Source: a virus
Lineage: Duplodnaviria > Heunggongvirae > Uroviricota > Caudoviricetes
Virus record (IMG/VR): IMGVR_UViG_2778261532_000009
Coordinates: 1 to 45,326 of that record
DNA: 45,326 nt
Reading direction: 5' to 3' (one strand)
Position 1 is the first letter of the stretch, and each line of letters opens with the position of its first letter. A program made the position numbers. Shown here one piece after another: positions 13,901-16,900 of this stretch.

Positions 13901-16900
13901 CTGCTGGCCTTTACCCGTTAATTGGGGCGTCAGCCGTATCTGGTAGCCATCTTCATCATCCAGCACCACTTCTTTCACCGTGAAATACCCCGCGTTGATG
14001 TACTGCTGGAACGGCGCATTTTTACGTCCACCGGACGCTATCAGGATGCCGTTCTCCCGTAACCAGACAAACAGCGCGTTTTGCTTAAGTCCAACAACCT
14101 TTGCAAAATTCCCAATCAGGATCCCTTTAGCTACTGATACCCGGTCGGCAAAATCGACTTTAAGAGCGGCGGCCACCAGCTGCTGATTTAGCTGGTGGGC
14201 TTTCTGTTCCAGAAGTTGCTTTTGTTCAGCCAGTTCGGCAGCCAGGCGTAGGGCTTCAGGAAGCGTCTGGGGGATTGCGATCGGTTGCTGTTCTTTTTGT
14301 CGGAAGTAGCTGTCTTCCAGTTTTTCAAAGAATGCCCATGCCTGATCGGTTTCGAGCATTTTAGCGTGGCGGGCTGCGCCGCGTTCTGTCCAGAGGGTGA
14401 GTGAGCGAACATTGCGAGCAATTTTTACAGAGTAGTTTAAAGCTACTCTGTGCTTCAACTCGCGCAATGATTCTCCTTCAACTTTGAAAAAGTGCTTCCC
14501 TTCAACAAAGCGTACTTTGTTCTCATGATGATTTTGGCGAATACGGATTGTTTCTGTCCCATACCCTCTAGCAAGAGTCTCGGTTGTCACTACACGCACT
14601 CCCTGCCATTCCAGAACGGGAATTTCATCAGACTGATTCTGAACAACCACCAGCTCCGATTCCTGAACTGAAGGTGCATGAATTTTTTCTAATTTAACGT
14701 TATTTGCTTTCATTCTGTGTGCCTCCTTGCGTGCTTCGGCTGCGACGGTTGCGTAATTCAGATGCCCCTGTTCGAGCAGGTATTCGCGGATATCAGACAA
14801 CAGGATACGGTGAACCGCGTTCTTGTCCTTTCTCCGGTAAAGTTGTTTGGTGATCATGAAGTAGTTGGCAATAACGCCTGGTATATCCCTGGTACTGATA
14901 CAGGCAGTGTGCTGTTCAATTGCCTCGATCATCTCTTCACGGGTGACTAATGACGTTCTCATAGTCCCTCCTGAGCCGAAGCGTTAACAGGGAGGCACCA
15001 GTAACTGAGAGAATTGCGCGAATCGGTAGAAAAGCGGGCAGAGAAAATACAGGGAGCATCCGGAAGCTGAGAACGCGCCTCATCTTCTGTTGGTGCGATA
15101 ACGAAGTGATAGTGACGTTTTTGGCAGGAGTAAAAGCGCCAGATAAATTCAGGATGAGTTGGGGTAGGGATAGTAGCCATATTGGCAGCCTCCTTAGACG
15201 TTGGTATGTAACCACCGCAGAAGAGACCAATCTTGCTGGCGGTGGACTGTACGGAGTTGGCCTTACTGGCGTCCAAGGTAACCAGCCTACCCGAAGGTAG
15301 CCCCATACAGCCCACCATTGTAGAGGTGTGCGTGTACGCCGATACAAAAAAAAAGACGCGAGCGGCGTCTGTATCGCCTTAGACTTAAGCGGGAGGCCAA
15401 TCCCGGCACCCGTTTTAATGAGGTGCCTGATAAGCATAAACCGAAAATGCCTCAAGGCGCAAGAGGTCAGGCTCAATGTAACATCGGTAGTTAAAAAACA
15501 CAATTTATTAGAGCAAATATTCATTCATTAAGCCATGCCAGAGCTTCATCAACCTGCGCTTCGTCTTCGACGCTAAGCACTTCATCCTGGGGAACATAAT
15601 CCGCCAGCATAGCGAAACAATATGTATCCCAATGGTCTGGTGAGTGCAGGTTGAGTTTTTTCTTCATATCCTCCTTACTCATCACCTTCCATTGACCTGC
15701 GGAGTTAATCCCTACAGGGATTTTCGACGCTTCCTCAATAGTTTCATTACCCTTATCCAGTCTCATACGACCAGATTTTACGGCCTCTGCGGCTTGAACG
15801 TTGGCATAAGCACGTTTATCAAAGTACAGGCTCTTATCTTCACGGCTATGCATCTTTTTACCCCAGCGTATACGCTGTACGGTAATACCATAATACTCGT
15901 ACATCAGATCCGCCGTTGCTTTACCCAGGCCATCGCCGTCTATCGCTATGGTGATATTTGGGAATCGCTCAGGATTACATTCTGCGAAAATTTTGGCGGC
16001 AAGCTGCGTTTCTGTAACGTCTGTGTATTCCAGCATTCGATAGTTGATTACACGGCGTTTATTTCGCTGGCCGGACACCATCATGATATTGATAACGGAC
16101 TTATCCCGTCCCGTACCACCAGCAACGTCCACACATGCAAGCCAGCCCCATCCTTTGGCAATCTTGACTTTCCGCCGCGTTGCACGTTCAACCTCATCAC
16201 GTCCAAGAAGGAAGCCATCCTGTGATTTAGGGAATAGGCCGCGTACCTTAATCATGTACATAGGGTTATCACGCCCGCCGTACTCCGCCAGCTTCATTTT
16301 GATAAATGCTGGCGTTACCAACGGTGATTCCTCACTGTTAAGCGTGATCGCCGTATAAACGCCATCAGGGTTACCAGGACGCTTGGCCAGTTTATGGTGA
16401 GTATCGTAGAAATAGCCGCTTGGGCGTGTAGGCTGTGACAGTAATAAGATGCGGTTATCCTGTCCGGTAAGAGCACCAGTGATGATACCGAAAGCTCTAT
16501 CACTGACACCGGAGGCTTCATCGATAATATACAGAAGATGATCTGCGTGTTCACCGGCGAGAGCTTCTTCACTTCCCAGACGAAAGCCCTTCGGTACTAC
16601 AGTCCATACACCTTTACCAGTAACCTCATAGAAAGCGGTTTCTGTCAGAACAAAATAATCAGCAAGCCATGGAAAACGGCTGGTGGCAGTAGCCCAGTTT
16701 ATCTTGATGTACTTGAATATACCGGTCATTACCTGCTGAATTTTGTTCGCAACGATAATGGCGCGGGCACCGGGATACATGATTATGAACAACATGATCA
16801 TGATAGAAGTCATGTCTGATTTCCCGGTACCGTGACCAGACGAAACAGATGTCTTGCTACCCTGTTCCTGCACAGACTCAATAATCAGATCCTGCTGCCA

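Follow-up and report, generated by a model that had tools for sequence, protein, structure and literature searches.

The window analysed here is the whole 45,326-nt stretch of IMG/VR virus record IMGVR_UViG_2778261532_000009 (positions 1 to 45,326), a P1-like genome of the Caudoviricetes, and all coordinates refer to it unless another record is named. Between pacB (minus strand, positions 15521–17005) and the convergent c1 gene lies a module that is read on the minus strand, 5' to 3'. It comprises an operator for the C1 repressor, two candidate promoters, a short RNA of the IsrK family that ends in an intrinsic terminator, a c4 antisense RNA gene, icd and the antirepressor gene ant (Table 1). 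The order of these parts points to a second antirepressor operon of the type found in the P1 immunity region immI, with a leader RNA that may act as a decoy for c4. An earlier note on this DNA had drawn attention to the operator and the terminator; the c4 gene, the second promoter, the ~81-nt form of the RNA and its a1/b1 decoy sites went unseen there.

Table 1. Features of the pacB–c1 module in the window, in the order in which the minus strand is read
Feature	Position	Strand	Description
C1 repressor operator	15501..15517	minus	TTTGCTCTAATAAATTG; 15/17 match to the P1 C1 operator consensus ATTGCTCTAATAAATTT
Distal promoter (candidate)	15475..15503	minus	-35 TTGTGT (15503–15498), 17-nt spacer, extended -10 TGtTACATT (15483–15475); by-eye homology to P1 P2c4
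Proximal promoter (candidate)	15433..15462	minus	-35 TTGCGC (15462–15457), 18-nt spacer, -10 TATGCT (15438–15433); family-wide position
IsrK-family short RNA	15346..15426	minus	Rfam RF01394 isrK; predicted ~81 nt (proximal start) or ~123 nt (distal start ~15468)
Hairpin 1	15406..15426	minus	Part of the short RNA
Hairpin 2	15390..15405	minus	Part of the short RNA; followed by a single-stranded linker, then the terminator
a1 site	15394..15400	minus	UUGGCCU in the hairpin 2 loop; 7/7 complementary to c4 a' AGGCCAA
b1 site	15377..15384	minus	GUCUAAGG in the linker before the terminator; 8 bp with the c4 b' loop CCUUGGAC, one of them G-U
Intrinsic terminator	15346..15370	minus	AGACGC-CGCUC-GCGUCU and a nine-U tail; stem-loop 15370→15354, T run 15354→15346
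c4 antisense RNA gene	15235..15322	minus	Rfam RF01695 C4, 75.9 bits (threshold 45); tRNA-like closing stem, then GCCA
c4 b' loop	15271..15278	minus	Part of c4
c4 a'	15257..15263	minus	Part of c4
c4 target sites on the icd leader	15189..15230	minus	a2 UUGGUCU (15230–15224) and b2 CGUCUAAGG (15200–15192); layout as annotated for P1 a2/b2
icd	14959..15180	minus	73 aa; NCBIfam phage_ICD_like, 49.8 bits; 80% identical to P1 Icd
ant (antirepressor)	13844..14962	minus	372 aa; Pfam ANT 100.9 bits (KilAC) and ORF6N 69.8 bits

The whole window was scanned with Rfam at the curated thresholds (isrK 50 bits, C4 45 bits and c4-a1b1 46.7 bits). The isrK model (RF01394) matches positions 15426–15349 over its full length (1–77) with 60.8 bits and an E value of 1e-10. 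Our own covariance model has one match in the window, with 75.7 bits. Minimum free energy and centroid folds both display three hairpins, the last of which is a Rho-independent terminator with a U tail. In hairpin 1, five of the seven pairs are changed on both sides among the compared sequences and 90.8% pairing is maintained. Hairpin 2 is nearly invariant, and so is uninformative on covariation. The RNA is located upstream of, and is complementary to, a c4/STnc1160-like RNA that is followed by an antirepressor gene. The isrK and C4 matches adjoin in tandem on the minus strand, and the same tandem is present in RCS47, JL22, D6 and Stx phages. The RNA is assigned to the IsrK family because of the above-threshold Rfam match, the conserved terminator and the conserved place before the C4 and antirepressor genes. 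The Rfam c4-a1b1 model (RF03163) gives the window leader 20.5 bits (E 0.006, positions 15439–15386) and does not reach its threshold. The a1 and b1 sites of the window RNA are the complements of a' and b' in the neighbouring c4, as in c4-a1b1 leaders; judged by score the RNA would not be filed under that model, though the parts are alike.

The terminator hairpin has a G+C-rich stem of 6 bp and a folding energy of -8.0 kcal/mol. Its nine-T run is the sole homopolymer of at least 9 in the window, where just two have a length of 8 or more. A loose terminator pattern is not enriched in positions 1–20000 (24 found vs 20.2 expected), and the weight given to this terminator is therefore that of its quality and conservation. 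When each 3' end was folded separately, a hairpin followed by 5–9 T was present in 75 of 75 unique leaders examined, with energies of -7.8 to -11.2 kcal/mol. There are at least five clearly different stems with compensated changes, i.e., AGACGC/GCGTCT, AACCGC/GCGGTT, ACACGC/GCGTGT, ACGCGC/GCGCGT and AGCGCA/TGCGCT. These alignment-free folds replace helix 3 of our own model alignment, in which the MAFFT seed misplaced the 5' arm of the terminator (only 48.6% paired). Conservation in all 75 leaders implies that the terminator is under selection, and thus that either the short RNA or the attenuation itself is functional. The hairpin and long U tail would be compatible with an association with Hfq, and the isrK family carries "Hfq binding" in its name. 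In the predicted distal transcript there is an extra 5' segment (positions 15427–15468, minus strand) in which CGCCUUGAGGC pairs with the b1 region GUCUAAGGCG in the minimum free energy fold. On this model, the accessibility of b1 might differ between the long and short leader forms. The segment does not vary among the relatives that possess it; hence there is no covariation evidence for the CGCCUUGAGGC/GUCUAAGGCG pairing.

The operator begins 4 bases past the end of pacB (15521) and is read from 15517 to 15501, the P1 consensus being asymmetric. The window contains 12 C1-operator-like sites at three or fewer mismatches vs 0.25 expected, and none of 100 shuffles reaches 12. A full-length C1 repressor is encoded at positions 12960–13811 (NCBIfam equivalog, 610.9 bits). 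The operator sequence is identical in RCS47, JL22 and vB_EcoM-673R5, and its orientation and position relative to the promoter are those of P1 Oc4 (Op51). The earlier note had described an operator followed after about 130 nt by a canonical terminator, and this is borne out by the 15/17 site, the 131 nt between the operator end (15501) and the start of the terminator stem (15370), and the hairpin with nine T. It had also stated that no plausible open reading frame (ORF) lies between the two. Two mechanically called ORFs cross the interval, one of 195 aa (14937–15524) whose ATG overlaps the pacB stop codon, and one of 40 aa that starts with GTG (15287–15409). Both were rejected as coding: neither is conserved, and each extends across the terminator and RNA genes. 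The statement is accepted because sequence changes in relatives fall in the RNA pairing sites and because the ORFs run through the terminator and the RNA genes.

A coding function for the interval, either as a small protein such as JL22 gp120 ("hypothetical protein") or as part of the 195-aa ORF from 15524, is the least probable explanation considered and borders on the negligible. The ATG over the pacB stop does open a 195-aa frame in the window, and a hypothetical protein is annotated at this place in JL22 and in many plasmid records. However, the frame crosses the U9 terminator, the c4 RNA and, in another frame, icd; in the close relative JL22 it is annotated as an ORF of only 68 aa, and there is no Shine-Dalgarno sequence before the ATG. 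The RNA is common to D6 and the Stx phages but the start region is not. Substitutions in relatives are concentrated in a1, b1 and the loop of the terminator, and c4 has changes to match them, a sign of selection at the level of RNA.

Two promoters are proposed because of homology to annotated P1 promoters and a family-wide position. The distal candidate has a predicted start near 15468, and its -35 element shares 3 bp with the operator. In P1, the annotated promoter P2c4 (formerly P51a) has the form TTGTAT, N17, TGcTATCTT, with a -35 element that overlaps Oc4. An alignment by eye places TTTGCTCTAATAAATTG-TGTTTTTTAACTACCGATGTTACATT of the window against AATGCTCTAATAAATTTGTATTTTTAAGTCGCGAATGCTATCTT of P1; the two have in common a TTGT-type -35 element over the operator end, a 17-nt spacer and an extended -10 element (TGn). 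The proximal candidate is placed as is P1c4 (P51b) of P1. It ends 7 nt before a predicted start at G 15426, which is the first base of the IsrK model. In every module type a sigma-70-like promoter ends about 7 nt before hairpin 1, e.g., TTGACT-N17-TATATT in Stx phages and TTGCGC-N18-TATATT in D6. Only 16 unique modules, which are sited after the 3' end of pacB, have the C1 operator and distal promoter. Two tandem promoters probably precede the short RNA, and both their activity and the control of the leader by C1 are predicted from these motifs.

Matches of the window to P1 and P7 reach no further than the pacB stop codon. What follows, from the operator through ant, has been inserted between pacB and the convergent c1 gene and is missing from P1 and P7 at that position. 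The same insertion is found in vB_EcoM-673R5 (97.6% identical) and in RCS47 and JL22 (86%), and the inserted module is present in at least 269 PLSDB plasmid records. vB_EcoM-673R5, RCS47 and JL22 all retain a canonical immI at the P1 position, which in this genome is outside the window. The pacB–c1 module is therefore a second copy and not a relocated one. At least four a/b specificities occur in the pacB–c1 slot behind the same operator and promoters. These comparisons bear on the idea that the hairpin and U9 tract are simply the terminator of a pacA-pacB operon, with the operator an orphan C1 site that has no promoter. Such an arrangement is very improbable. The element is 150–175 nt past the pacB stop on the same strand and would also stop pac transcripts, and a generic scan finds no strong promoter. 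But the sequence past the pacB stop is an inserted module rather than the native pac 3' end, as its absence from P1 and P7 at that place attests; the same RNA and terminator are present where no pac genes lie close by, namely in Stx phages, in D6 and in many prophages; and the operator-promoter geometry copies that annotated for P1 Oc4 and P2c4.

Downstream of the terminator, the c4 RNA has a folding energy of -41.6 kcal/mol. The gap between the terminator and c4 is approximately 26 nt, which is too short for a separate c4 promoter, so that c4, icd and ant at this locus depend on terminator read-through. Site b2 overlaps the icd Shine-Dalgarno sequence AAGGAGG (15195–15189), which is followed by the icd ATG after 8 nt. 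The stop codon of icd overlaps the ant start codon (ATGA). The locus thus has the c4-icd-ant part of a P1-type immI: a c4 gene, a2 and b2 sites of which b2 lies over the icd ribosome-binding site, and icd coupled to ant. The Ant protein is 56% identical to P1 Ant1 and near-identical to it at both ends. An ORF of 119 aa (14959–15318, minus strand) begins at an AUG inside the c4 5' strand and continues in frame into icd; this AUG is also the start of the Gifsy-1 "orf45". It was rejected as a coding reading and is probably not a conserved protein, since in RCS47, JL22 and D6 the frame closes ahead of icd. Between the stop codons of ant (13844) and c1 (13811) there is a G+C-rich hairpin of 9 bp, ATGCCCGG-TTGA-TGCCGGGCAT (13815–13836), which is probably a bidirectional terminator for the convergent ant and c1 genes. 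A different spacing is found in three IMG/VR contigs (L046, L062 and L079), where 64 nt separate the IsrK terminator from c4 and contain an extended -10 promoter, TGtTATAAT. In these contigs c4 appears to be transcribed independently of read-through.

The a1 and b1 sites of the short RNA match the a2 and b2 sites on the icd leader. The duplex energies with the c4 sites are -11.3 (a1), -8.6 (a2), -12.4 (b1) and -14.5 (b2) kcal/mol, and are thus similar for decoy and target. Only site-level energies are used, as a full-length RNAduplex calculation for the short RNA and c4 ignores intramolecular structure and gives long, meaningless duplexes. The three a elements (a1, a', a2) and the three b elements (b1, b', b2) covary between the window, RCS47, JL22/D6, the Stx phages and P1. 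The a site/a' sequences are UUGAGAC/GUCUCAA in RCS47 and also in JL22 and D6, UUGCUAC/GUAGCAA in the Shigella phage Ss-VASD, UUCUCAC/GUGAGAA in phi346 and UUGACAG/CUGUCAA in P1. The corresponding b site/b' sequences are GUCAAAGG/CCUUUGAC in RCS47, GCAAAAGG/CCUUUUGC in JL22 and D6, AAUC(G/A)AGG/CCUUGAUU in both Ss-VASD and phi346, and GUUAGUG/CACUAAC in P1. A pattern scan of IMG/VR yielded 93 unique true modules. In 92 of these a1 is complementary to the cognate a' at 7/7 positions, with 16 a' types represented, and in 91 of 93 b1 pairs over at least 7 bp, with 40 b' types. There are 51 a'/b' combinations among the 93 modules. A full match of both a1 and b1 is found in 52/59 cognate pairings vs 84/3422 non-cognate pairings. 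This is strong comparative evidence that a1 and b1 of the short RNA are functional c4-binding sites.

Additional copies of the module show the range of this variation. In the closest phage relative, vB_EcoM-673R5 (L002, 2596–2675), hairpin 2 has a 1-nt deletion and the T run is 3 nt shorter, and the score is below the isrK threshold. These changes reflect either an error of homopolymer sequencing or the decay of this copy. D6 (L004; record 20806–21177) has two immI-like regions. One has an IsrK-type leader with no match to the C1 operator within 9 mismatches, and the other resembles the canonical c4-icd of P1. Contig IMGVR_UViG_2671181028_000005 (L017, 9821–11209) has three tandem units with a period of 656 nt, each with its own promoter, IsrK-like RNA, c4 and small gene and with a different a/b specificity. 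Multiple copies are also present in L033, L034, L040, L082 and L094, and other contigs hold two copies. The tandem units look like arrays of orthogonal modules.

The best studied member of the family is IsrK of prophage Gifsy-1, which exists as a terminated small RNA (sRNA) and as a translationally silent read-through mRNA, isrK-orf45-anrP; supplied in trans, IsrK increases translation of the antirepressor by a factor of more than 100 (Hershko-Shalev et al. 2016, PMC4825925). The IsrK mutation G28A is compensated by C162U and G31A by C159U, an RNA of ~80 nt (STnc1160) is processed from the read-through transcript, and the action of IsrK is reported to be Hfq-independent (PMC4825925). Where a member has UUGGCGU as its a1, the two G residues of this site are positions 28 and 31, and in two such contigs (L066 and L078) positions 159 and 162 are the pairing C residues of a'. 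By this family numbering, used in place of the Gifsy-1 sequence itself, the "helix b-I" of Gifsy-1 is most likely the a1-a' pairing. Like Gifsy-1 IsrK, the window RNA has an above-threshold covariance match and three hairpins, the last an intrinsic terminator, is placed immediately upstream of a processed RNA of the c4/CI type (STnc1160 in Gifsy-1) and an antirepressor gene, has a middle hairpin loop that pairs with the downstream RNA, and precedes genes whose expression needs read-through. Unlike Gifsy-1, the promoter region of the window has a P1 C1 operator together with a second promoter candidate, the distal one. The window element is a P1-like plasmid prophage and not a lambdoid one, has no link to AntQ and has another a/b specificity, and the expression of its RNA is predicted. 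The earlier note had proposed that a repressor-controlled promoter makes a discrete RNA of about 120–150 nt, or else an attenuated leader for an antirepressor-like operon. By homology with Gifsy-1 IsrK, which is both a short sRNA and the leader of a read-through mRNA, both proposals gain support, and the predicted distal form would be approximately 120 nt.

In the GenBank annotation of P1 the order of immI is Oc4 (Op51), P2c4 (P51a), P1c4 (P51b), a1, b1, c4, a2, b2, icd and ant1/2. The window module, with its two candidate promoters, has the same order of parts, including a1 in a hairpin loop, a terminator-like hairpin and b2 over the icd ribosome-binding site. Work by Citron and Schuster in 1990 and by Biere and coworkers in 1992 on P1 and P7 is reported to have found that c4 is processed from the operon transcript and that pairing of a' with a2 and of b' with b2 blocks icd translation and thereby ant. 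The two modules differ in location, the window module being at the pacB–c1 locus, and in specificity, with a'/b' of AGGCCAA/CCUUGGAC vs CUGUCAA/CACUAAC in P1. Leader scores differ in opposite directions. The window has 60.8 bits for isrK and 20.5 bits for c4-a1b1, whereas P1 has 35 bits for isrK, which is below threshold (E 8.5e-6), and 51 bits for c4-a1b1. The window terminator is much stronger, with U9, while the terminator-like hairpin of the P1 leader has U5. The central domain of Ant is an ORF6N swap relative to P1. Since the P1 leader matches both c4-a1b1 and, weakly, isrK, IsrK-type RNAs can be equated with the a1/b1 leaders of c4 systems, and the sequence evidence places IsrK-type RNAs on one branch of a common architecture and the P1 a1/b1 leader on another.

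More distant parallels are found in P4 and P22. The immunity region of P4 (seqA - CI RNA - seqC) also has a processed, tRNA-like antisense RNA with copies of its target on both sides in the same transcript, and SeqA was called a structural homologue of IsrK by the authors of the IsrK study (PMC4825925). In contrast to the window module, P4 has no antirepressor, icd or C1 operator, and its CI RNA causes premature transcription termination of replication genes. In P22 immI a small RNA likewise controls antirepressor synthesis in a secondary immunity region; however, sar is a true cis-antisense RNA from the opposite strand, with no a/b loop code, decoy leader or sequence relationship to the RNAs described here.

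Family membership, complementarity, covariation and the conservation of the terminator and of the promoter position are all seen in the sequences compared, and the region is quite probably the operator-promoter and 5' leader of an additional, paralogous antirepressor operon of the immI type with an IsrK-like decoy of c4. Transcription would proceed from the distal promoter, whose -35 element is covered by the C1 operator, and from the family-wide proximal promoter, which would be constitutive. Most transcripts would end at the hairpin-U9 terminator and give short a1/b1 RNAs of approximately 120 and 81 nt. The fraction that reads through would form the c4 precursor and the icd-ant mRNA. The a' and b' sites of c4 would pair with a2 and b2, mask the icd ribosome-binding site and block the translationally coupled ant. 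This masking and the block of ant are established for P1 and P7. As a1 and b1 copy the target sites of c4, the short RNA would compete for c4 as an anti-antisense decoy, whether c4 is free or is a domain of the read-through transcript. The decoy step was demonstrated genetically for Gifsy-1 IsrK, and for the window locus we infer it by analogy. A fall in C1 repression would then give more leader RNA, c4 would be titrated, Icd and Ant would be made, and Ant would inactivate more C1. The outcome would be a feed-forward switch with an RNA specificity distinct from that of the canonical P1 immI.

A different account confines the leader to action in cis. The terminator would set the level of read-through into c4-icd-ant, and a1 and b1 would act only within the same read-through molecule, for example in guiding c4 folding or processing or in autoregulating termination, as does P4 CI with seqA; the short RNA would then be an inert by-product. 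This account is unlikely, though it deserves to be taken seriously. With no separate c4 promoter in the ~26-nt gap, the terminator must control entry into c4, icd and ant. The IsrK segment that Gifsy-1 encodes in cis pairs with the c4-like region downstream of it and fixes an inactive structure, and the authors raise P4-like termination control by STnc1160 (PMC4825925). In contrast, the short form of Gifsy-1 IsrK activates translation more than 100-fold when supplied in trans, and trans-acting point mutants lose this activity (PMC4825925). The separate c4 promoter after the IsrK terminator in L046, L062 and L079 makes the leader an independent transcription unit, and a terminator that looks efficient, U tail included, is strictly conserved, as would fit a stable sRNA.

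Several points weigh against the proposal of a trans-acting decoy in a promoter-driven leader. The folding energy of the 81-nt RNA is ordinary for its composition (z = -0.76 vs shuffles); support for the structure is taken from the covariance model and sequence comparison because single-sequence thermodynamics is uninformative. A generic sigma-70 consensus scan flags neither of the two promoter candidates in the window. The stoichiometric argument assumes that c4 is much more stable than the short RNA. Gifsy-1 has no icd, and its downstream coupling therefore differs, "orf45" being translated instead from an AUG inside the c4-like RNA. Constitutive expression of STnc1160, the c4 equivalent of Gifsy-1, strengthened rather than weakened IsrK-mediated arrest and toxicity (PMC4825925). 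A picture in which the short RNA is purely a decoy for free c4 may thus be too simple, and the interaction may take place mainly on the c4 domain within the read-through mRNA.

A broader proposal is that IsrK-type RNAs are general anti-antisense partners of c4, that each pair is one channel of a large code of RNA specificity with two sites (a/b), that P1-like phage-plasmids hold a second channel wired to C1, and that the pacB–c1 slot is an exchangeable "immunity cassette". This generalization is tentative, and we give it somewhat less than an even chance. If true, the cassette would be a C1-gated feed-forward induction switch and an extra layer of heteroimmunity among co-resident P1-like plasmids. 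By sequence, the RNA is a clear member of a curated and experimentally studied family and the operon is paralogous to the classical immI of P1; the conceptual gain beyond known systems is small. P1-like phage-plasmids are vehicles for the spread of resistance genes in E. coli and Salmonella, and the module offers a testable route by which these plasmids might choose between maintenance and lytic induction. Recognition of it as an RNA-controlled antirepressor switch (operator, IsrK-like decoy, c4, icd and ant) corrects its annotation. It also links the Salmonella work on IsrK to the classical a1/b1 sites of P1, whose role was left as "putative". The published description of the inserted module is "two short hypothetical orfs and ant" only (PMC6906374). 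The a1/b1 motif has been known since 2010 (PMC2864571), and the co-occurrence of isrK and c4 in phages was noted before in APSE phages (PMC7313666). In the literature examined, neither the RNA content and C1 operator of the pacB–c1 insertion nor an explicit equation of IsrK with the a1/b1 leader, nor the breadth of the a/b specificity code, is described; a paper on anti-sRNAs in enterohaemorrhagic E. coli makes no mention of isrK or c4.

Additional elements were noted in the window and in related phages. All 12 C1-operator-like sites, i.e., the operator of the module and 11 others, span positions 10264–42817. Among the others are an overlapping inverted pair at 42790–42806 (plus strand) and 42801–42817 (minus strand), which forms a bivalent operator, and a facing pair at 12302–12318 (minus strand) and 12385–12401 (plus strand), upstream of coi/c1. 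In the Stx-type phage Ss-VASD a match to sRNA-Xcc1 (L005, 3524–3607; 79.6 bits) is located approximately 0.9 kb downstream of the IsrK/c4 pair. The sRNA-Xcc1 RNA was reported next to genes with an ORF6N domain in the study of APSE phages (PMC7313666). An IS10 RNA-OUT at 5304–5373 on the plus strand (Rfam, 98.8 bits) represents an IS10/Tn10-type element in this P1-like genome. Three tRNA genes are present on the minus strand (40382–40454, 41982–42054 and 42060–42132), with Rfam scores of 64.7–76.8 bits, as expected for a P1-like phage.

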